A DNA stretch of 64,000 nucleotides from Squalus acanthias (lineage: Eukaryota). The position numbers and the translations under genes were made by a program. Below are positions 16,208 to 29,769 of the stretch, piece by piece (within the stretch, counting starts at the first letter, position 1; each line of letters opens with the position of its first letter). The stretch covers positions 4,030,001 to 4,094,000 of the forward strand of contig CM059432.1 in assembly GCA_030390025.1 (NCBI GenBank). Direction: 5' to 3'. The notes under the pieces are model-generated. The model had not been told where the DNA came from and searched no databases. It saw only the letters and a list, made by a program, of their open reading frames with translations.

Positions 16208-17899
16208 TGTAAGGGTTTTTGTCTCTCAGCCTGTGAGATTCGTGTGGCTCTGTGCAGCCCGGATGCTAGTGCGGGTTTAGGCCTTGTTGCCTGTTCTGGT
16301 CTCCAGCCAGTCTGGGAGCACTAGACACACCTGTGAGTGGTTCGACCCACTCGCCCTTACGGTTCTAGACACTGGACTTAGATGCGAGAGCAGTAATGGA
16401 GATGAAACTCAGGTAGACTCGGTTGAATGGTCCGAAATGGAAAATCTTTATTGCATATTATTTAAGATTACGAAATACATGTCATAAGCACAGATTAATG
16501 ACAGTACAATCTTACACGCAGTTATGTAATTAATTTCAGGAAAACGAGGAACGAACGACACATCGTAAATGGGGGCACACATTACAATTATCCTTAATAC
16601 TTAAAACCCTCCCCTATCAATATCTGTCCTAAGCTAGATTCGTAGGATTCGAGACTCATGCTCACCACTCGTGATAACTCGGAGAATTCCGAAAACTCTG
16701 ATCGGATGTTTTTCACCGCAGCGCCCACGTGTCGATCAGGGGGTCTCCTGGCCCCACTTGTTTACTCGTTTCTGCTCCGGCTAGCAGGCTGGAACGTCTG
16801 CTGTCATGAAGATCTGTGTTGTCCTTGGAGTTCCGACTATACTCAAAAAAGAGTCTTCCTGTGCCCTCACACCGGTTCGATAAAATTCGAAAAATAGTCT
16901 TCCTGTGTCAGTTCTGTAGAACTCAAAGAAGTCTTCCTGGCAAGGAAAATGTCTATTCGACCTACAGGCGCGGTCGGAGCTTACTGACCGTGGCGATAAG
17001 TATGGTCTTCTTCTCTTCTCATCTCATCTCATCTCATCTCATCTCATCTCGGGCCTTCGGTTCCAACACCGTTTACCGACTTATCGGGATGGTGTGCCCG
17101 CTTCAAGGCTTCAGAGCCCAGTTCTACACAGGTCTTCGCGACACGACACGAAGTAGATCCGAGCGGATCATAAAGTTCAACAGTCTTTTGAAAAAAGACA
17201 CGAGGCAAGCAGGAACAAGACGGTGAGTCAAGAGCAGCCACGAGGATAAACACCAGCAAGATAAGAGAAAGATGGACGGTTGGAGCTTGTAATTATAGTG
17301 CAAAATCTTCTGTTTCCCGCCCAACCTTAATGTCTTTCCTTTTGTTAGGGTTTGGCGCTCAAATGTCTTGTATAGGGTGATCTTCGTTTTAATGGGTTTC
17401 GGGGCTACTCGTAAATGTCTGAGTACCTGTTAATATTTCTCCCATTGTTTAATCGGTCGGTGTTCTCCCTGGAGGGGTTTTGGGGCTTCCAAATGTTTTC
17501 TGTAACTACCCGCTAACGGCTCTCTCATCGTAGAGTCGTTGGGATTTTACATATTAATGTCTTTGGATGGGTTCTTGATTACTTGGTACAACAGCCCTCA
17601 TTCGCACCTGGGAGACCGATTTCAGTATTTATGTGTATACTGTGAACCCATGATGTCTCGTGTATTATCTTCAATGTGCTGAGCCTTAATCGATCTTGCA
17701 CAAATGTTTATTGGAACGCCATCTTGTCTGCCTGTCGAAAAGTCTAGAATGTTCCGCCACGAGGCGTGGCGGCCATTTTACAAGCTGCTTGTGTCCACTT
17801 TGAAAACCTGACAGCATTCTGCTGAAATAAAAGCTGTTTGAATGAAACTATGTGTTTTTCTCCTTATTAATAAAATCACGATATATTGCGAATTCTACA
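16208..17899 (-). repeat. 3' LTR (1692 bp)
   Basis: Direct repeat of the 5' LTR with about 10 substitutions seen by eye and one fewer ATCTC unit (17021-17050); preceded by the PPT. Confidence 0.96.
16447..16452 (-). terminator. Polyadenylation signal in the 3' LTR
   Basis: AATAAA about 240 nt from the LTR end; also at 27601-27606 and in the solo LTR at 37982-37987. Confidence 0.6.
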
Positions 17900-17911
17900 G
17901 TCCCTCCTGTT
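17900..17911 (-). promoter_or_regulatory. Polypurine tract
   Basis: AACAGGAGGGAC immediately precedes the TGTAG start of the 3' LTR on the minus strand. Confidence 0.8.
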
Positions 17912-18352
17912 GATGCGAATAACTCCGCTTATCGTATCAAAAATATTGTGGCGAGCAATATTATCTCGATTTTCTCCGAATCCAGAAAATTTAATCCCAT
18001 AACTTAAACTATCTAGGGTCTTTGCGTCGTCCTTATTTCCCAAGAAAATTACATTTTATATCACCGTAGGCATCATTTGCCTTTAAACTTACACCACTTG
18101 TTTTCCTTCCAGGCGCAACCAGGCCGATGCCTCTCGTATCACCTGTATATTCACATTTTTATTTAGGGAAAGGAAAAACAAAACAAAACCAAACAATCAT
18201 TTTTTTTTTTAACTACAACACCATCACCAAAATAATCAACACCAACTCTTAAGACATGTCGAGTTCCAAACGTATTTACAGTCTTTGAAAATCATGAGCG
18301 AGTACAAACTTCCGCGGCGCACGTGGCGAGCGGGAGTGACGCCATTTTCCGA

Positions 18353-20704
18353 TTACACGGTGCTTTCATCGTGCACGCGCACGTAACGTTCTCGCCACTC
18401 TCCCGTGTTTTCGTGTTTGGTGAGGCGTTTGCCTCTCTTACAATGTACGATCAATAGGTACACTACAATAAAAACTTGGCATACGACTAAAATGTGGGAG
18501 GCTATTCTGATCCATGAAGGCACTTCAATATTGGTGAACAGATTCCACCACGGTGGAATTACTATATCCAGAATGTCTGTCCCTATTTCGACAGTTTTCT
18601 GTTCGAGTGCGTAAAAATGTTTCTGTGACACCGCGACGGCTTTGAAAAGCTTGGTGAGGTGTTCAGGGAGAGGGGGAATGAGGTATCCGAAATGCGCGAC
18701 GAATCGCTGCAAGTCGGTGAAATTCTCTTTTACTGTTAGATGAACAGTGGATGGTTCAGGGATTGGGACAATTCGCTGTTGTGCTACTTGAACTTCCGCC
18801 CTGGGTTTGAAACAGAAACTGCTGTCACTCACTGGACACCGGCTACGGTTTCCATGCTGGTAGTGTTGCGCTGCAGTGGTAACACAATATGTTCCACCCC
18901 CGATGTATGCTACCTGCGGAGGCACATGATCTTGTGCCATTGCCTCCATGGTGCAATTCATGGACTTGGCGCCAGCCGTTCTGAACCCGCACTGAGGTGT
19001 TAAAAAGGCATTCAAGTGCTGGGGACACAGTATTATGTGTGCTCCCCTGCCACGACAACCAGAGAGATCTGTACCTGTCATCGTTTGCTCCCAGCGGATG
19101 ACGTAAGGTGGAACCGCTGCATAGCGAATGTGGGCTCCCCCCTGAATGACACCAATGTTCTCTACCCGATACACCGGGGCGGGCTTTGCTGTGTCGCCCA
19201 AAACCGGCATACGTAGTACTATACCCATGATAGTATGGTTTGATCGTCCGCAGTCCACGGGGACTGGGTATGCTTCTGAAGCTAGCCTGAGCTGGCACGG
19301 GCTTAATGCGTTCTGAAAAGGGTGGAGCGCCCGCAGGTGTTTGTTACTTATCCAGGACGGGACCAAACCTTGTTTTAAATCCTCCAAATTACTGCGGCCC
19401 TCGCCCAGTAATCACGCCCCGTAAAGCACGCACACCTCATTCTGCGCAGCTTGATCGGATGCATTCCGATCTTCCCTAATCAGGGCATTTACCGTCTTTG
19501 CATGTTTCTCTAACTCTGCGATAATTTCCTTTAAATGGAGAGTCATGGCTTGGTCCTCGTGTAAACCCGACCCAACCACTTTATTTTCATCTGTTAGAAT
19601 GTCTTTTAATTGTGTCTTTAAACCATTAATCTGGGTCTGTAGCTCCACACTGTCTAGAGCGTTGACCACAGATGTACCCGTGTTAAACGCAGTGAACGCG
19701 TCGTTTACTACACCCCTTCTTTGCCTCTCTACTTGATCCAAAACTTCATGTGGTGCGGTGTACAAACTTGTTTTATCAATTTCCGCGAAATCGAATTCGT
19801 AAAATTGTCTGAACATCTTGGTCAACAGGACCTGATATAACTGTTCCGTCTTTTTGGGGCACCACTCTGGTAACCGCACCTCGGTGAGATTTAAAATCAC
19901 CGAGGCCACCGCGTAATGTACCCCCTGAAATAGTATCTGGTCTGTGGGGACCAGTACCAAACCATTCCCGAGTCCCTTACTAGTTTTAGGGCACCCTTCC
20001 TCTTCAGCTAGAACCACCGGAATCGTGGGCGGGGCTTTGCGTGGGCGCGTAATGAGCTCAGTGGCATTTACCGGGATCGAAGAGTATGGGGCTCCGCACC
20101 CCCTGGTGCTTGCATCCCACCTCATCCCCTGTCCGTTATCCTGCCATTGATTAATGAAAAATATGGAGATGCCTTTGGGGCAAGCGTACTTTGACCCCCA
20201 CATGCATACATAAATTCCCTCATCCGGTTCCCACCATTTGTCCCAACAGACTCTCACTTGTCCGTTTGTCCCCGTAATTGTCCGATGGGTATTATTACCC
20301 AGTCGTTCCCACTCGACCGAAGAGTTCCTCATGTTTTTGCTCAGCTTTCGCAGCCACCACCATCGGCTCAATGGGACATTCCCATTACAAGTCAAACAAA
20401 TCCGTTTGCCGACGGTGACGCTGATCCTGGGTGCGATGATCCTTACTTTGGGGCACATTAAAGAAGTCTCTTGGTAGGCAAACCCCGATGTGCTAGAATA
20501 CTCCGTTGAGTTCGTTCCCAGCCATCCTGGCCACCTTCCCTTGTGGAAATAGGTGGTGGTCTCCTCAGCCTCCCGCCTTCCGGTCCCATCCACCGCGATG
20601 GGGGCCGTGTCCCCGGAGCATCCAAACACCACGACATCCTTGGTGCGGCCTCGATAGGCCAATCCACATCCGATTGCCGCGAGCAATACTAGAATTCGTT
20701 CCAT
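18353..20704 (-). pseudogene. env: Env class I fusion glycoprotein (F-protein-like), 783 codons with one internal TGA at 19412-19414
   Basis: ORFs 19412-20821 and 18353-19387 share a frame. Signal peptide MERILVLLAAIGCGLA; furin site RQRR (19715-19726); then GVVNDAFTAFNTGTSVVNAL, a heptad repeat, a Cys-rich beta region, TM segment ILVVCQVFIVVYLLIV and a basic stop-transfer KRGKR. Confidence 0.88.
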
Positions 20705-20717
20705 CCTTCCTTGGTTC

Positions 20718-20740
20718 CTGTGATCAGATAGAATGAGGTA
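20718..20740 (-). promoter_or_regulatory. Candidate env splice acceptor
   Basis: TACCTCATTCTATCTGATCACAG|G lies 13 nt upstream of the env ATG (AGGATGG). Confidence 0.55.
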
Positions 20741-21021
20741 GCCAGCCTCGCAAGAGTCTCTGGCTTTTGTGAAGGGTGAGCGGATCCCCTGACCTCGCCT
20801 CACGTAAACTTCAATGTTCACTAAATAAACTTTAACTAGACCTATCTCTAACTCCCATCATTTTACCATTTTTTGTTAAAATTAAACTACAAACTTAACC
20901 TTATTTAAAACTATAAACTTATAACCTTAAACTTAGAAACTTAGAAACTTATAAACTTAGAAACTTATCCTAAACTTAAACTTATTACTGTACAGCACCG
21001 CCCGTTCCCAGGGCGGCCCCT

Positions 21022-24000
21022 TTAAATTCTGAGAAGGCTGCTGCGAGCTCTTCCCGACGGTGGGAGGGCACTGACCCCGTCCTTTGATCTGCCGCAGCCT
21101 GTGGCTGCACTGACCCCTTCCTTTGATCTGCCGCAGCCTGTTGCTGCTGCGATGGGACTGGGCCCTACTTGGGCTGCCTTAACCTTGAGTCTACGCCTTG
21201 GGGCAGTCTGGGGCCATGACCACATCTTCCTGGGCTGGGGTGCTCTACTTGACCTACGAGGAGTTGTCGGGGGCAGGAATCCCAGGACCGACGGACCGGG
21301 TTTCGAGACTTTCACCGGGACGACCTGTGGTCCCACCACAGTCGCTGGCTCCGCCTCCCCTGACTCCGCCTCCCTGACCTCGGGACTTGCAGCTTGTGGC
21401 ACCGCCCTGCTCGGCCCAGCAGGCGGCCCTTCCCTCGCAATCCCTACCTCCCCCGAGGGCAGGACGTTCAAGGCGGGCGGCTCGGGCTCTGAGGTTTCCG
21501 CCGTCACGCCCTGTGGTCTCACAGCGGCTGGCTCCGCCTCCCCTAGCTCCTCCCTCCTGTGTTCGGGACCTGCAGCCTCGGTGTCCACCCTGTGTGGATC
21601 TCTATCTGCAGCCCCTGTCCTCCCTATACCTGAATCGGGGGCGACCCTTGCGTTCCCCGATTCCCACTCGTCCTCATCACTATCCTCATCTGACTCGAGT
21701 TCCGGGAACTCTCCCTCATCTGACTCCCAACCCCACAAAAATGTTTCACAATTCACCAGGATGTCTCCTCCCCTGATGCAAGCTGCTTTGCCTGCCTGTG
21801 TGCCTTGTGGTCCTACCTGGGGCTGCGAGTCCCCACTCGCAGGTTTTGCCCCTGTGGTTTTCCCTTGTGCACCTGGCTTGTACAATTTGCACTGGTTTAC
21901 GTGGAACCACTTAGTGCGCCAAGGTATCTTTACGGCGTATACCATGGGACTCGCCTTATCTACAATGTTGTAGGGTCCCATATACAGTGGTTCCAGACTC
22001 CCTACTCTGGCGTAGTTTCTGACCATAACCTGGTCTCCTACTTCCCACTCCCGCGTTTTGCGGGGTTCCAGCAACAGGCGATTGCCCTGATGCTGCCTTC
22101 CCATGTTCCCAGCCGCCTGCTCATAAACCTGCTTCAGGCGCTCCAAGAGGGTCTGGGCGAACTTGTCCCTGCTTATCTCTTGGAGCTGACCCTCAGTGAG
22201 CACCGGCGCTAGCACATGGGTGGGGGTTCGCATGAGCCTCCCAGTCATCACCTCGTGCGGGGAGTACCCCGTACTTTTTGACTGACTGGCCCGGACCCCC
22301 ATGAGGACTAAAGGCAGAACTTCCGCCCATTTTTGGGGCGAGTTCCTAGTCTCTTTCCTCAGTTTCTCCTTCAGGGTCCGGTTCATGCGTTCAACAATCC
22401 CGGATGACTGGGGATTGTGTGCTACGTGCCACTTCCCTTCAATGCCCAAAAGCATGAGGGTGTTCTGCATCACCTGGCCGGTGAAATGACTCCCCTGGTC
22501 CGACTCCACAAAACAGGGGAGTCCCCACCGCGAGAACACTTCCCTGACCAAGATTTTTGCAGTACCCAGTGCCGTAGCTGTTCGACAGGGGAAGGCTTCC
22601 ACCCATTTGGAAAACACATCCACCAAGACGAGGCAGTATTTATAGCCTCCCTGGGTGGTGGGCAGGGGCCCTATATAGTCGATCTGTATCGACTGCCATG
22701 GTCCCTCTACCCTTCTTACGTGCCCCATGGGCACTTTCCTTTTCTGGGGGTCTGGGTTGTTTGCAGCGCACACGAGACAGTTTGCACAGAACTCGCGGAC
22801 CTGTTCCCTGAGCCCTGGCCACCATCCCGCTTGCTCTACCCGTTGCCAGGTAACCTCGGGCCCGGGGTGCCCTGCCCCTGGTCCCTCGTGAGCCAACTGG
22901 AGGAATTCCCTCCTGTGCTGCTGCGGCACAACCCACTGCTCCTCGCGGAACAGCATGCCTTCCCTAACGGAGAGGGTTGCCGTACTGTACGGACCCTCTA
23001 CTTGCTTCCCCTCAGCAATGGTTTTTAGGACTGCTTTTAGGGCGGGATCCTGGGTTTGGACGGTCTTAAGGTCTAGGGGCAATGCTACCCTGGAGTTCCC
23101 GGGATTCCCGTCCCTGCCTTGGATCGCTGCCATGGGTCTGGTCCCATAGGGGTCCCAGAAAATGCCGTTGCGGGCACCTTCCCTGGCTAGCGCATCCGCC
23201 TGCTGGTTGCCCTCCCCACGGGGCTCTGTGGAGGAGTGAGCCTTCACCTTATGGATGAAAATCTCCCCTTCCTCCCCTACTGCTGCTAGGATCTTTTCCA
23301 GCAAGGGCTTCACCGTTAAAGGTCGCCCGTCCGCGGAGGTGTATCCACGGCGGGACCAAATGGCCAGGTATTCCGTACACGAATTACATGTGAACATACT
23401 GTCCGAGCAAATCGTGTATGGGGTTGGGAAAATGTCTGGGTGGGTAACAACGTACACCACTGCAGACAGCTCAGCCTGCTGCGCGCTCATGGTGCTTGGG
23501 AGCTTGATCGCCAGGGCAAGGTTTGCCGCAGGGTCATAAACTCCACACCCTGTGAGTCGTTCGCCAGCAGATACTGTGCTAGAACCATCAACATAAATCT
23601 CGCGCCCAGTGGGATGTATCCCGGCCCGCAAACCTATGTTGACGTCCCACACCCCTTCCACCGAACATCGGTGGGCTGTACCGGGGTATACCAAATTGGC
23701 CGCAAGCCTGGGCTCGCAAAGACCTTTTACTCTAAGATCCAGCTGGGAAAGAAGAAGGGTCCAGCGCGCAATACGCACGCTGCTTACGGTCCCATCTTTA
23801 ATCCTCCCATCTAAAAGCATCTTAGTTGGTGTGTGCTGGGTGAGGAGAGTGATGGGAGAGAGCCCTGTGAAGATCGCTGATCTTTTCACAGCCCAATGCG
23901 TGGCTAAAAGGTGCCTTTCGCAATTGGAGAAACTCCTCTCCACATCCGTTAACACCCTGGACGAATAGACAACCGGCCTCAGCTTGCCGTGACGCTCTTG

Positions 24001-25548
24001 GAGCAGCACAGCGCTCAAGCTGTCCCCGCTGGCAGCTACCTCCAGGAAAAACTCCTTCCCCCCATCTATGGCCCCTAAAGCTGGCGCGGTCTGCAGATCC
24101 CTTTTTAACTTCTCGAAGGCTGCTTGGCAGCCCTCGTCCCAAGACCGCTCCACTCCCTTATGGAGGAGTCGGAGGAGCGGCGCCGCTGTGGCCGCATAGT
24201 CTTCGATAAAATCCCTGCAGTAACCGGTCAGTCCCAAGAAGGACCTCACACCCCTTATGGTGTTGGGAATCGGTAACTCTTGCACCGACTCCCTCCTAGC
24301 CTTATCTATGGCTCTTTCCCCAGCGCGAATGGTCAGCCCCAGGAATTTTACTTCCTGCTGACCGATACGTGCTTTCTTAGGATTTACTTTAAAACCCTTT
24401 CTCGCTAGCAGCTCCAATAACTCGGCCAGCAGTGGTCCATGCTCCTCCCTTGAGTCCGTAAATAGGAGCAAATCATCCACGTACTGCACTATCTGATTGG
24501 GCTGACTAAACTCCTTTAAACTTCCTGCCATACACTGATGGAAAATACTGGGGCTGTTGTGGAAACCCTGTGGCAGACAGTTCCATGTGTACTGTTGTCC
24601 TTTGAAAGTAAAGGCAAACTTGTACTGGTCCTCTCGCCGCAGCGGGATGGACCAAAAACCGTTCGAGATATCCAGCACCGTGAACGTGGTCGCGGACGCT
24701 GGGATACTCCCTATTAGGTCAGCAACTGCTGCTACCGTGGGCGCGCAGGCGGGAATGTTACTGTTAAGGACTCTGTAGTCCACCGTGGCCCTCCACGAAT
24801 TATCCGGCTTCCTAACCGGCCATAATGGGGAGTTCACGTGTGTGGCTATTGGCCTCAACACGCCCTGCTGCACCAAGGAGGACATTGCTGTCTCCATATC
24901 GGGTTCTGCTTCTTTGGGGAAGTTATACTGTTTTTGGGGCCGGGTCATGGGGTCCCCATCTACGCTGACCTCAAACCCGGTAACCCTCCCACAATCGTGC
25001 TTGTGGGTTGCAAACGCGTGCATATTATCTGACACGTACGCTTGCATGTCCGTTGGGACATCTGCGACCATGAGCCCAAGGTCGTAGCCTCCGGATGGCT
25101 GCATGGTACACAGGACCCCTGTTTCTTCCTCCCCCGGAATTACCACTACCTCGCCTTCTTCAATCTTAGCCCCCCAGAGACAGTGATTTCTGAGGTCCAC
25201 GAGGATCCCGTGTCCTGATAGGAGATCGGACCCGAGGATACCTCTTCCACCCCCCTCCTGCCATTCCATCAGTATGCACTTCCACTTGATGTGAAGTGCT
25301 CCCAAACGAATGGATAGCGGAAGGGAGAACGCGCCAGCCTGTTCTTTTCCCGTGAACCCCGCTAATGTGAATGGGACCTTGGTAGATAGCGGCGAGTCAA
25401 AAGGGCTATCTGTATGAATCACGGTGCAAGAAGCTCCCGTGTCCAACAAATAACTGCCCTTCTGTTTCTCTACCTCCATTTCCACCAGGGGTCGCTTCCA
25501 CGCATCATAGCTGAGCGGACACAGGTAGACGGGCTGCGCGGGCTCTAG
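21022..25548 (-). CDS. pol: Pol (protease, RT, RNase H-like tether, RNase H, integrase, C-terminal extension), 1508 codons in frame with gag
   Basis: Protease RPLV...LLDTGA (DTG 25435-25443). RT LDISNGF/LPQGF/YVDD (24472-24483). RNase H YVDGSS/AELSA/SDS/HKVKAH/QADALA. IN HHCC, IDYIG/SDQG/VERMN and GPY. No stop between the gag TGA and the listed GTG start at 25485. Confidence 0.95.
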   Translation of the reverse strand, partial: LEPAQPVYLCPLSYDAWKRPLVEMEVEKQKGSYLLDTGASCTVIHTDSPFDSPLSTKVPFTLAGFTGKEQAGAFSLPLSIRLGALHIKWKCILMEWQEGGGRGILGSDLLSGHGILVDLRNHCLWGAKIEEGEVVVIPGEEETGVLCTMQPSGGYDLGLMVADVPTDMQAYVSDNMHAFATHKHDCGRVTGFEVSVDGDPMTRPQKQYNFPKEAEPDMETAMSSLVQQGVLRPIATHVNSPLWPVRKPDNSWRATVDYRVLNSNIPACAPTVAAVADLIGSIPASATTFTVLDISNGFWSIPLRREDQYKFAFTFKGQQYTWNCLPQGFHNSPSIFHQCMAGSLKEFSQPNQIVQYVDDLLLFTDSREEHGPLLAELLELLARKGFKVNPKKARIGQQEVKFLGLTIRAGERAIDKARRESVQELPIPNTIRGVRSFLGLTGYCRDFIEDYAATAAPLLRLLHKGVERSWDEGCQAAFEKLKRDLQTAPALGAIDGGKEFFLEVAASGDSLSAVLLQERHGKLRPVVYSSRVLTDVERSFSNCERHLLATHWAVKRSAIFTGLSPITLLTQHTPTKMLLDGRIKDGTVSSVRIARWTLLLSQLDLRVKGLCEPRLAANLVYPGTAHRCSVEGVWDVNIGLRAGIHPTGREIYVDGSSTVSAGERLTGCGVYDPAANLALAIKLPSTMSAQQAELSAVVYVVTHPDIFPTPYTICSDSMFTCNSCTEYLAIWSRRGYTSADGRPLTVKPLLEKILAAVGEEGEIFIHKVKAHSSTEPRGEGNQQADALAREGARNGIFWDPYGTRPMAAIQGRDGNPGNSRVALPLDLKTVQTQDPALKAVLKTIAEGKQVEGPYSTATLSVREGMLFREEQWVVPQQHRREFLQLAHEGPGAGHPGPEVTWQRVEQAGWWPGLREQVREFCANCLVCAANNPDPQKRKVPMGHVRRVEGPWQSIQIDYIGPLPTTQGGYKYCLVLVDVFSKWVEAFPCRTATALGTAKILVREVFSRWGLPCFVESDQGSHFTGQVMQNTLMLLGIEGKWHVAHNPQSSGIVERMNRTLKEKLRKETRNSPQKWAEVLPLVLMGVRASQSKSTGYSPHEVMTGRLMRTPTHVLAPVLTEGQLQEISRDKFAQTLLERLKQVYEQAAGNMGRQHQGNRLLLEPRKTREWEVGDQVMVRNYARVGSLEPLYMGPYNIVDKASPMVYAVKIPWRTKWFHVNQCKLYKPGAQGKTTGAKPASGDSQPQVGPQGTQAGKAACIRGGDILVNCETFLWGWESDEGEFPELESDEDSDEDEWESGNARVAPDSGIGRTGAADRDPHRVDTEAAGPEHRREELGEAEPAAVRPQGVTAETSEPEPPALNVLPSGEVGIAREGPPAGPSRAVPQAASPEVREAESGEAEPATVVGPQVVPVKVSKPGPSVLGFLPPTTPRRSSRAPQPRKMWSWPQTAPRRRLKVKAAQVGPSPIAAATGCGRSKEGVSAATGCGRSKDGVSALPPSGRARSSLLRI

Positions 25549-27357
25549 TCATTGGGTATGGTTAGACGGGCCTGCGGCACCTACGGGGCCGGTCGCAACC
25601 GCCACCTTTCCATGTGCACTCATAAAGTTGCGCATGGCTCCCAACACTGTTTCGAGGTCGTCGGGAGGGGTGGGTGCACTAGCTTCCCTAACAGAGACAG
25701 GCATCTGGGCTCGGGCTGCGGGATTTTTATCCCTGGAATCCTTCCAAGGGTTCCTGCAGTTCTTGCGCCAGTGCCCTGTCCTCCCACACCCGTAACAAGC
25801 ATTACTTGCCTGCGGGGCGCGGTTACCCTCCTGATGCCACTCCTTTTGAGCCGGGGCTGCGGGTTGTACCTCATGTACTTTTCCCTTAAGGGGACGTGTT
25901 CCCATACCCCTTATATTGCGGTATCCTACCGTGAGTCGATTTAAGACCGACTCTTCCGTAATGTTGGGGTCAGTGGGATCAAACCACGCTTTTGCCTGCT
26001 CTCTGACGGCTGGCAAACTGTTGGCTACTATACACCTGAGCCAATGAGTTAAACCGACGCCGTCCACAGCGTCGCGCTCCGGCGCACCTGGACAGCTGCG
26101 CTGATATACTGGCCACAGCCTGTTGGCAAAAACCTTCGGGGGTTCTCCCTCCATCTGCACTGTCTGTCCCACTCTAACAAACGGACCTTCATCGTCCGTC
26201 CCCAACACTTCTAGGACCTCATTTTTTAATGCCTCATAGGTCTTGGTTCCCCTCTTGCTCTCGTCCGAGAGACACTGAAGGATTGAACTGCCTAACGAAA
26301 ATAACAGCATTTTTGCTGTTTCCCCATCGTCGCAGCCGTTAATGGCTGCGGTTTGCTCAACTTCTCTAAAATGTACGGAAGGGTCGTCTGACTCGGTCAG
26401 CTTCCGTACGTGATTTATCATAACTCTCAGCTGGTGTGAGCTGTGAGGCAACACAAGCTGGTTGAGGAGAACCCCTGGTTCCTCCCCACCGTTTCTGTTT
26501 GGGCCCCTTTTTATACCCGTAACTGGACACAACGGTCCCTTTTCCACTTCTTCCTCAGTGGGCTCTTTCGTTTCTTCTACTACTTCCTCCCTTACCCAGG
26601 TTTCCGAATAGCTGGGTGGCGCGGAGGGCGTAGTGGCTAATACTTCCTTTGCTTTACTTGGTGGGAATTTCTGAGACTCCTCATCTACTAGCGGCTGGTG
26701 TGCTGACGGACTGATAAGGCACACCATGCCGTGCGCTTTGTTCACGGCCCTTTTAAGGTGTTCTATCTCCTTTTGGCAGACGCTATGATCGGCCCCCTGA
26801 AATTTATCCTCAAGGGCCATCTTATATGCCGCCCTAACCCCCGTTAAGCTCTCTTCCTGGGCTCTTATTTGGGCAGCTTGGCGGGCACATCGTTCCTTTA
26901 GTCTGCCCTCACTTAACTTTGCCTCAGTGACCTGACACTCGAGGTCATCTATTTTTGCTTTATGGTGACTGGTGATTTCCTGGCGTTCTCGGTGCAGCGC
27001 ACTTAAATTCCTAATGAGCAACTCCCCTCCAGAGACCTTCTCATCCATTTCCTCCTCTAAATGCCTGATCCGAGCAGTTTGCGCTGTAATGACCTGGTTT
27101 GAAATCTGGACCTGCCTTTTGTAACACATTAACCAGACTGCTTTCTTGACTGTATTTTTATGTTCCTTACTATCTATCCACCTCTCGGCTGCCTCTAGTG
27201 GACACTTATCCGCTAACAGGTCACTTATCCATTTCTTAGTTAGATTTACCTTTCCGAACACATAATCTGCTATCTTTTCCTGCATAACATTTCGTACATT
27301 CACACCAAAGTCTAACACACTACCCTCTCGCTGCCAGTGTCCTGCCGCGGTCGCCAT
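25549..27357 (-). CDS. gag: Gag polyprotein, 602 aa
   Basis: Intact ORF with ATG in AAAATGG context; coiled-coil-like N-terminal half; PSAPPSY late-domain motif (26608-26628); CCHC knuckle CYGCGRTGHWRKNC (25756-25797); ends TGA. Confidence 0.92.
   Translation of the reverse strand: MATAAGHWQREGSVLDFGVNVRNVMQEKIADYVFGKVNLTKKWISDLLADKCPLEAAERWIDSKEHKNTVKKAVWLMCYKRQVQISNQVITAQTARIRHLEEEMDEKVSGGELLIRNLSALHRERQEITSHHKAKIDDLECQVTEAKLSEGRLKERCARQAAQIRAQEESLTGVRAAYKMALEDKFQGADHSVCQKEIEHLKRAVNKAHGMVCLISPSAHQPLVDEESQKFPPSKAKEVLATTPSAPPSYSETWVREEVVEETKEPTEEEVEKGPLCPVTGIKRGPNRNGGEEPGVLLNQLVLPHSSHQLRVMINHVRKLTESDDPSVHFREVEQTAAINGCDDGETAKMLLFSLGSSILQCLSDESKRGTKTYEALKNEVLEVLGTDDEGPFVRVGQTVQMEGEPPKVFANRLWPVYQRSCPGAPERDAVDGVGLTHWLRCIVANSLPAVREQAKAWFDPTDPNITEESVLNRLTVGYRNIRGMGTRPLKGKVHEVQPAAPAQKEWHQEGNRAPQASNACYGCGRTGHWRKNCRNPWKDSRDKNPAARAQMPVSVREASAPTPPDDLETVLGAMRNFMSAHGKVAVATGPVGAAGPSNHTQ
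27339..27356 (-). promoter_or_regulatory. Primer-binding site, tRNA-Arg(UCG)
   Basis: TGGCGACCGCGGCAGGAC is the 18-nt complement of the vertebrate tRNA-Arg(UCG) 3' end ...GTCCTGCCGCGGTCG-CCA (tRNA sequence recalled, not searched); it lies 5 nt downstream of the 5' LTR. Confidence 0.85.
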
Positions 27358-27361
27358 TTTC

Positions 27362-29058
27362 TGTAAGGGTTTTTGTCTCTCAGCCTGTGAGATTCGTGTG
27401 GCTCTGTGCAGCCCGGATGCTAGTGCGGGTTTAGGCCTTGTTGCCTGTTCTGGTCTCCAGCCAGTCTGGGAGCACTAGACACACCTGTGAGTGGTTCGAC
27501 CCACTCGCCCTTACGGTTCTAGACACTGGACTTAGATGCGAGAGCAGTAATGGAGATGAAACTCAGGTAGACTCGGTTGAATGGTCCGAAATGGAAAATC
27601 TTTATTGCATATTATTTAAGATTACGAAATACATGTCATAAGCACAGATTAATGACAGTACAATCTTACACGCAGTTATGTAATTAATTTCAGGGAAACG
27701 AGGAACGAACGACACATCGTAAATGGGGGCACACATTACAATTATCCTTAATACTTAAAACCCTCCCCTATCAATATCTGTCCTAAGCTAGATTCGTAGG
27801 ATTCGAGACTCATGCTCACCACTCGTGATAACTCGGAGAATTCCGAAAACTCTGATCGGATGTTTTTCACCGCAGCGCCCACGTGTCGATCAGGGGGTCT
27901 CCTGGCCCCACTTGTTTACTCGTTTCTGCTCCGGCTAGCAGGCTGGAACGTCTGCTGTCATGAAGATCTGTGTTGTCCTCGGAGTTCCGACTATACTCAA
28001 AAAAGAGTCTTCCTGTGCCCTCACACCGGTTCGATAAAATTCGAAAAATAGTCTTCCTGTGTCAGTTTTGTAGAACTCAAAGAAGTCTTCCTGGCAAGGA
28101 AAATGTCTATTCGACCTACAGGCGCGGTCGGAGCTTACTGACCGTGGCGATAAGTATGGTCTTCTTCTCTTCTCATCTCATCTCATCTCATCTCATCTCA
28201 TCTCATCTCGGGCCTTCGGTTCCAACACCGTTTACCGACTTATCGGGATGGTGTGCCCGCTTCAAGGCTTCAGAGCCCAGTTCTACACAGGTCTTCGCGA
28301 CACGACACGAAGTAGATCCGAGCGGATCATAAAGTTCAACAGTCTTTTGAAAAAAGACACGAGGCAAGCAGGAACAAGACGGCGAGTCAAGAGCAGCCAC
28401 GAGGATAAACACCAGCAAGATAAGAGAAAGATGGACGGTTGGAGCTTGTAATTATAGTGCAAAATCTTCTGTTTCCCGCCCAACCTTAATGTCTTTCCTT
28501 TTGTTAGGGTTTGGCGCTCAAATGTCTTGTATAGGGTGATCTTCGTTTTAATGGGTTTCGGGGCTACTCGTAAATGTCTGAGTACCTGTTAATATTTCTC
28601 CCATTGTTTAATCGGTCGGTGTTCTCCCTGGAGGGGTTTTGGGGCTTCCAAATGTTTTCTGTAACTACCCGCTAACGGCTCTCTCATCGTAGAGTCGTTG
28701 GGATTTTACATATTAATGTCTTTGGATGGGTTCTTGATTACTTGGTACAACAGCCCTCATTCGCACCTGGGAGACCGATTTCAGTATTTATGTGTATACT
28801 GTGAACCCATGATGTCTCGTGTATTATCTTCAATGTGCTGAGTCTTAATCGATCTTGCACAAATGTTTATTGGAACGCCATCTTGTCTGCCTGTCGAAAA
28901 GTCTAGAATGTTCTGCCACGAGGCGTGGCGGCCATTTTACAAGCTGCTTGTGTCCACTTTGAAAACCTGACAGCATTCTGCTGAAATAAAAGCTGTTTGA
29001 ACGAAACTATTTCTTTTTCTCCTTATTAATAAAATCGCGATATATTGCGAATTCTACA
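27362..29058 (-). repeat. 5' LTR (1697 bp)
   Basis: Minus-strand termini TGTAGAATT...CCCTTACA; direct repeat of 16208-17899; followed by the PBS; (ATCTC)7 at 28175-28209. Confidence 0.96.
28449..28481 (-). promoter_or_regulatory. Candidate LTR core promoter (GC box plus TATA-like)
   Basis: GGGCGG (28476-28481) then TATAATTA (28449-28456); same arrangement conserved in the diverged solo LTR (34222-34227, 34248-34252). Confidence 0.5.
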
Positions 29059-29769
29059 TTCTTCGGCAGCATGTCCCAAACCTGCGACCTCTTCCACCTA
29101 GAAGGACAAGGGCAGCAGGCGCATGGGAACACCACCACCTCCAAGTTCCCCTCCAAGTCACACACCATCCTGACTTGGAAATATATCGGCCGATCCTTCA
29201 TCATCACTGGGTCAAAATCCTGGAACTCCCTCCCTAACAGCACTGTGGGAGTACCTTCACCACACGGACTGCAGCGGTTCAAGAAGGTGGCTCACCACCA
29301 CCTTCGCAAGGGCAATTAGGGACGGGCAGTAAATGCTGGCCTTGCTAGCAATGCCCACATCCCATAAACGAATAAAAAAAACACTCCAGTGCCGTACTGA
29401 GGGAGTGCTGCACTGTCGGAGGTGCCGTCTTTCAGATGAGACGTTAAACCGAGGCCCCGTCCGCTCTCCCAGGTGGACGCAAACAATCCCAGGGCCACTA
29501 TTTCAAAGAAGAGCAGCGATTCTGGGCCAATGTTTGTCCCTCAACCAGCACCACTAAAACAGATTATCGGTGCATTATCTCATTGCTGTCTGTGGGAGCT
29601 TACTGGCTGCTGCGGTTCTTGCATTACAACGGTGACCGCACTTCAAAACGTACTTCATTGGCTGTAAAGAGCTTGGGGACGTCCTGAGGTTGTGAAAGGT
29701 GCTGTGTGGGTGCAAGTTTTTCTCTTTTGTTTTCTTTTACCAAACAGCTGTTAGCCAGAGCAGTACAAT

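Follow-up and report, generated by a model that had tools for sequence, protein, structure and literature searches.

How retroviral RNA is divided between translation and packaging is a long-open question, and in the endogenous retrovirus described here the primer-binding site (PBS) shares bases with the gag start codon, so that shut-off of translation by the primer tRNA could be tested directly with a short reporter. The locus raises two questions: whether Gag starts on the PBS, and what has become of the interval which in RSV separates the PBS (nucleotides 102-119) from the gag AUG (380) and which holds the packaging signal in its approximately 260 nt (PMC5035971). We think it likely that the gag ATG on the PBS is the true start and that the approximately 70 nt behind it serve twice, as Gag codons and as one arm of a predicted stem.

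The provirus and its classification

The window (the whole 64,000-nt stretch of Squalus acanthias DNA that was analysed) contains a minus-strand provirus at 16208-29058 (Table 1). It is a young copy, with LTRs of 1697 and 1692 nt that differ by 10 mismatches in 1692, and its insertion interrupted a LINE and left a flanking 4-bp target duplication, TTCT. The end of the 5' LTR is placed at 27362 because the comparison of the two LTRs and the TTCT duplication fix it. The layout is that of Retroviridae (LTR-gag-pro-pol-env-LTR with a target duplication, a tRNA PBS and a polypurine tract), and the Pfam domains of pol run in the order RVT_1, RT_RNaseH_2, RNase_H, Integrase_H2C2 and rve, that is, RT, tether, second RNase H and then integrase. 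Both LTRs hold a short (TCTCA)n microsatellite (28170-28210 of the window), which differs by one unit between them.

Table 1. Features of the provirus, in window coordinates.
Feature	Position	Strand	Basis or remark
5' LTR, TG...CA, 1697 nt	27362..29058	-	LTR pair comparison, target duplication
Donor-like motif GG/GTGAGC, 214 nt upstream of the poly(A) signal	27814..27822	-	candidate splice donor
Predicted poly(A) signal AATAAA	27601..27606	-	
U5 arm of the long helix (27593-27568 and 27552-27528)	27528..27593	-	folding, covariation
Left arm of the U5 inverted-repeat stem, pairing with 27369-27363 at the LTR end	27508..27514	-	nearly invariant, without covariation support
TCGAACC, complement of the tRNA T-loop (PAS-like), in the loop and 3' side of a U5 hairpin	27493..27499	-	
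LTR-to-PBS spacer of 5 nt (range across families 3-5 nt)	27357..27361	-	
gag ATG, sharing the first two PBS bases	27355..27357	-	
PBS, 18/18 complement of host tRNA-Arg(TCG), coding for Gag residues 2-6	27339..27356	-	
gag codons 6-24, 3' arm of the U5 helix (27342-27318 and 27314-27288)	27288..27342	-	
Met25, rival start, opening the conserved M-E-x-R-I-x-x-Y motif	27283..27285	-	
gag (602 codons), coding for a coiled coil, capsid-like helices and a single zinc knuckle; stop TGA then CTAG	25549..27357	-	
pro-pol, same frame as gag: protease, RT, tether, RNase H, integrase	21022..25548	-	
env-like gene, own ATG, signal-peptide-like start, one in-frame stop (19414-19412)	18353..20704	-	
3' LTR, with a purine-rich tract ahead of it	16208..17899	-	LTR pair comparison

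The pol gene continues the gag frame across a single TGA stop. At this stop (25551-25545, minus strand), the TGA is followed by CTAG, which we take to be a vertebrate readthrough context; gamma- and epsilonretroviruses have an amber stop at the end of gag. Behind the integrase, Pol extends for about 250 acidic, Pro/Gly-rich residues with short repeats (21022-21750, minus strand), a region in which relatives carry deletions. In the structural model of Gag, the long coiled coil is a helix at residues 68-185, and the first predicted helix spans residues 14-36, with Met25 at its middle and low confidence before residue 18. One zf-CCHC match was found in Gag, at an E-value of 0.005 that lies under Pfam's cut-off, and a search of the ESM Atlas with Gag gave only generic retrotransposon Gag clusters. 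The env product has an Ig-like stretch (a weak Ig_3 match at residues 88-167, E 0.31) and an RQRR cleavage-like site followed by a long ectodomain. With the single env and X at its stop as query, PF00523 (fusion protein F0, as in lokiretrovirus Env) gave no match at E-values up to 1, and one row of a lokiretrovirus supplement table gives a Chondrichthyes order 0/3 genomes.

The element is likely an SnRV-like endogenous retrovirus of cartilaginous fish. Skate and catshark supply its Gag relatives, and amphibians and coelacanth its RT relatives, which are approximately 50% identical. Of the 50 fold matches listed for the RT, the one of highest identity is Q88285, which we take to be SnRV Gag-Pol; it is 45% identical over 215 columns, has an rmsd of 1.6 and stands at rank 32 when the matches are ordered by E-value. 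In skate, gag copies (XP_078265527.1 of Rhinoraja longicauda and three members of its cluster) carry host-gene annotations, and isoforms are given for some of them. SnRV reportedly uses an Arg primer, a point of likeness to the tRNA-Arg PBS here. It has an env leader AUG upstream of gag, unlike the present element, in which env has its own ATG. Further likenesses are the coiled-coil Gag, the single zinc knuckle or finger and the gag-pol frame that runs across one stop (PMC2717909), and SnRV-like elements with shark members are described, including CmiERV lineage I of elephant shark (PMC4422223). The accessible portions of the texts on SnRV and SnRV-like elements do not mention an overlap of gag start and PBS.

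The gag AUG of prototype foamy virus (PFV) is clear of the PBS. The 5' end of the present element resembles that of PFV in its long LTR and in the motif at 27820, which is similar to the major donor that PFV carries in R, upstream of its poly(A) signal (PMC3694450). Unlike PFV, with its 445-nt leader read by shunting (PMC5902531), it has a gag ATG that overlaps the PBS and a tRNA-Arg primer; class III elements mostly use tRNA-Lys (PMC5210030). It also differs from Spumaretrovirinae, whose Gag has no zinc finger (PMC2717909) and whose Pol comes from a spliced mRNA, in having a zinc knuckle and a pol in frame behind the gag stop.

Overlap of the start codon and the PBS

On the minus strand the LTR ends in ...CCCTTACA (27362), followed by GAAAA and then TGGCGACCGCGGCAGGAC. 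The sequence-only reading had proposed that the gag ATG overlaps a tRNA-Arg PBS in a strong initiation context, and all of this is confirmed: the ATG at 27357-27355 shares two bases with the PBS, nucleotides 27356-27339 match the 3' end plus CCA of host tRNA-Arg(TCG) at 18/18 positions, and the ATG has A at -3 and G at +4. The spacer supplies the A of the ATG and most of the Kozak context. The 602-codon frame begins at this ATG, with no in-frame ATG upstream of 27357; seven ATGs sit 253-604 nt upstream, the closest in any frame being at 253 nt. The spacer between the LTR-terminal CA and the PBS is a variable 3-5 nt (loci L007-L126), as against 2 nt between the purine tract and the 3' LTR, so that integrase would need to trim an unusually long U5 overhang.

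An A precedes 2706 of the 2835 exact genomic matches to the PBS 18-mer, which are mostly one young family and so not independent, and the overlap is therefore not a chance mutation of the window copy. Because most matches come from that one family, four non-random sets of 30 loci were drawn. One set held the 30 loci that best match the window. The other three were the first 30 from each of these groups: 129 loci that lack the A, 335 in which the A is present but another base follows the PBS, and 329 that carry a second PBS version. The families of the ATG loci are 70-98% alike in gag DNA. The conserved M/L-E-x-R-I-x-x-Y motif follows the ATG at a distance of exactly 24 codons (72 nt) in 84 of 90 ATG loci; four of the others are one base short and two have no motif. 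Where the A is missing, the distance from the PBS start to the motif is 67-74 nt and takes in each of the three frames (26/30 loci), and these sister families have variable spacing and a start of their own 19-26 nt behind the PBS. Skate and catshark proteins start with MATTKG or MATAAG and have Met at position 25, although these are protein records only, with starts chosen by gene callers. One non-ATG family (L041-L043, L055 and L057) has TTG in place of ATG, with the frame open into gag in four of five copies; the TTG is possibly a near-cognate start or a relic. Loci L040, L056 and L060 have the PBS in common with these families but come from a different element, whose leader is longer.

Quick, unrooted trees of 38 and 34 rows were drawn from 86 sequences, comprising 78 of 113 loci (those with the motif and at least 170 readable codons) and eight proteins. 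When the first 24 Gag residues are left out, the overlap falls in three deep lineages, and its state changes at least twice on the unrooted tree. A single clade of ATG families is rejected (p-AU 4e-7), yet the spacing is common to them. On this shared spacing we tentatively favour the overlap as the ancestral state. It is dispensable, because sister families have spread with the downstream start. The overlap is real and lineage-wide, and marks a sizeable group of endogenous retroviruses in sharks and skates.

The primer differs among these families. The second PBS version (329 copies) fits another host tRNA-Arg(TCG) at 18/18 positions, whereas either version matches the other's tRNA at 14/18. 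The two versions encode MATAAG and MATTKG, and they alternate on the unrooted tree with at least five switches. Retroviral plus-strand synthesis copies the PBS from the primer, so the host tRNA would set Gag residues 2-6. The same genome thus offers a natural experiment, with sister families that have or lack the overlap and two primer tRNAs that alter the N-terminus of the protein. The motif of the first tRNA-Arg(TCG) has 431 genome matches, mostly in tandem arrays among the first 100 matches listed; at 39.0-41.9 Mb, approximately, of G000:C26 (L002-L006) the tRNA is carried by tandem units of about 1.6 kb, and tRNA-Ser(GCT) sits beside it in the two loci scanned. The second isodecoder has a single genome match (L127), though 329 PBS copies fit it.

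An overlap of PBS and start codon was not reported in the literature we searched, where coverage is thin for subscription papers, including the SnRV genome paper. Within that literature the overlap is apparently new for Retroviridae; its parts are known, and Ty1 of Saccharomyces cerevisiae (Pseudoviridae) is a precedent, with a PBS within the GAG ORF and one RNA pool that is both translated and packaged (PMC4974528). The Ty1 PBS is likewise inside gag coding sequence, but it is a 10-nt, bipartite site for initiator tRNA-Met; in the present case the PBS has its full 18 nt and begins inside the start codon, and the host element is an env-bearing vertebrate retrovirus.

A leader probably overprinted by gag

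When folded, the U5-PBS-gag stretch is predicted to form a long helix that joins U5 to the codons following the PBS (z -2.16). Across 18 related loci this helix comprises 44 pairs, with 99.2% of cells paired compared to 34-45% in slid controls. Five pairs (18 cells) are changed on both sides; 6/500 and 0/500 shuffles reach as high, counts that are not probabilities because the structure was derived from the same alignment and its rows are kin. A separate alignment of nine more diverged loci gives a helix that joins the same regions, with 10 doubly changed pairs. When the post-PBS stretch is paired with the LTR tail (20 shuffles each), the duplex has z of -2.8 or below in 13 of 18 families, both ATG and non-ATG, compared to 0/18 for a control stretch of gag; the duplex z of the window copy itself is only -1.6. 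The complement of the tRNA T-loop in U5 is found in 78 of 90 ATG loci (control stretches 2/90 and 0/90) and in 7 of 30 non-ATG loci.

Synonymous divergence is 0.20 in codons 7-24 against 0.38 downstream, where 24 of 396 windows are as low; we attribute the low value to these codons doubling as an arm of the U5 helix. The helix may also mask the codon signal in codons 7-24, and by itself it could restrain insertions and deletions.

These data indicate that the post-PBS leader is overprinted by gag and not lost, with codons 6-24 forming a predicted stem arm. The claim that no leader remains behind the PBS is correct insofar as the non-coding stretch between PBS and gag is gone, but incorrect insofar as a leader is absent, since these codons are predicted to pair with U5. 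The companion proposal that its signals lie in R/U5 or within gag is borne out for the stem, through its compensatory changes, and the conserved candidate donor motif in the LTR is in keeping with it. A retrovirus, it seems, can dispense with a non-coding stretch between PBS and gag. In avian sarcoma-leukosis virus and HIV-1, U5 pairs behind the PBS and also complements the T-arm of the tRNA (PMC1865047). The present element is similar in that U5 pairs 3' of the PBS and carries the T-loop complement, and unlike them in that gag codons make up the 3' arm of the stem, while its 5' arm starts 8 nt past the poly(A) signal.

This position of the U5 arm has a predicted consequence for the poly(A) site. 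As modelled, the region 8-34 nt behind AATAAA is covered in the 5' copy only: its predicted unpaired fraction is 0.16, compared to 0.58 when the LTR is folded alone and 0.37 when the 3' flank of this locus is included. This suggests that the stem would hide the 5' cleavage region and so be an additional means of silencing the 5' poly(A) site, one that would depend on where transcription starts.

Translation, packaging and the choice of start codon

We suggest that scanning ribosomes start at the first AUG after U5 and that the approximately 70 nt behind it would have two roles, encoding the first 24 residues of Gag and, as RNA, supplying the predicted 3' arm of a stem of U5-leader type around the primer site. 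The N-terminal extension would matter mainly through its frame and its RNA shape and little through its amino acids, while the host tRNA would set residues 2-6 as the PBS is recopied. A bound tRNA and an initiating ribosome would be mutually exclusive at the site. The tRNA is probably loaded after packaging, as in other retroviruses, so that a special switch would be unneeded.

Such a switch, in which Gag-helped annealing of tRNA-Arg covers the AUG and shifts the RNA from translation to packaging, we regard as possible but on balance unlikely. It is physically plausible, because the 18-bp duplex, for which the predicted energy is -41.5 kcal/mol, would occlude two of the three AUG bases together with the 16 nt that follow; the arrangement recurs in three deep lineages, and a U5-AUG switch has been proposed for HIV-1 (PMC5035971). 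Against it, the sister families have managed to spread with a start 19-26 nt downstream of the PBS. Primer annealing, moreover, normally needs nucleocapsid and accompanies or follows assembly. Ty1 also works with its PBS inside GAG (PMC4974528). Somewhat more doubtful still is a joint reading in which the tRNA both writes residues 2-6 and blocks the start as an antisense, while the gag codons close the stem over the 5' poly(A) region. If this were true, one RNA element would couple suppression of the 5' poly(A) site, translational shut-off and priming.

Our preferred reading requires initiation on the PBS, and from the placement of stops and ATGs we infer that Gag probably does start there. 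In codons 7-24 the gag frame has stops in 6 of 81 copies, and the other two frames in 77/81 and 80/81. Out-of-frame ATGs precede codon 25 in 82 of 84 ATG loci. Non-ATG loci have their first post-PBS ATG in frame with gag in 27/27 cases, and at +37 to +44 in 23 of these. From these placements, a first-AUG rule holds in both states. In one family the ATG is kept in 13/13 copies while codon 25 is Leu in 10/10 readable copies, and 9 of its 13 copies have no other in-frame Met before codon 25.

The alternative, that initiation is at Met25 (or, through leaky scanning, at both codons) and the upstream ATG a by-product, we consider improbable. It would have the A-rich spacer beside the obligatory TGG create the ATG and the RNA stem hold the spacing. 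Several observations are in keeping with it. The third-position excess of coding sequence is absent in codons 8-24 (0.41/0.41/0.42, p 0.42) but plain in codons 26-42 (0.15/0.11/0.50), and over nine families, for which 79 of 84 loci are in register, pN/pS of the extension codons is 0.63 versus 0.30 downstream; in a set of eleven more closely related families it is 0.48. Gag residues 1-17 are modelled at low confidence. Met25 has a good context, with a purine at -3 in 84/84 loci. Of ten copies of one small family, seven have the upstream ATG out of frame, two have it in frame and one is truncated, although none exceeds 220 open codons counted from the motif and the family may not have been autonomous. 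However, a ribosome bound for Met25 would meet the strong-context upstream AUG first and then, in 82 of 84 loci, ATGs in the wrong frame; one family lacks Met25 altogether; and the non-ATG families L037, L038 and L043 share the duplex signal yet vary in spacing, contrary to a stem that fixes it. Amino-acid conservation of the first codons, proposed as a check, gives a divided result: constraint on codons 8-24 is weak, but the frame is kept open and the spacing is fixed.

Very unlikely is splicing from the donor-like LTR motif to the AG at the LTR end, with removal of upstream ATGs: the motif is conserved (GGTRAGY upstream of AATAAA in 16 of the 21 loci with AATAAA in range), six ATGs lie within the part to be removed, the junction AG is present in 80 of 89 readable ATG loci and the major donor of foamy viruses lies in R (PMC3694450), but the 27 nt before the AG hold 11 pyrimidines compared to 18 at the candidate env acceptor, and the AG is missing in 9 of the 89 readable ATG loci while present in 18 of 23 readable non-ATG loci, so that the weak acceptor once suspected at this junction, with its poor pyrimidine tract, is unsupported.

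Contigs from six read runs in all gave no joint with canonical minus-strand intron ends, either on 17899-29060 (X1, X2, X5 and X7) or on 20450-21350 (X1, X3, X7 and X9); such contigs cannot show transcript starts or strand and are evidence neither way. No TATA box was found at a constant place among families. The last 224 nt of U5 here hold no ATG, but the Markov test of this depletion was weak and circular and was set aside. A gag-internal donor, AAG/GTAAAT at 27251, was rejected since it is not conserved, both of its codons varying synonymously among 11 families. A leader peptide spliced to env, as in SnRV, is not needed, as the ATG of env itself lies approximately 13 nt behind a good acceptor-like site.
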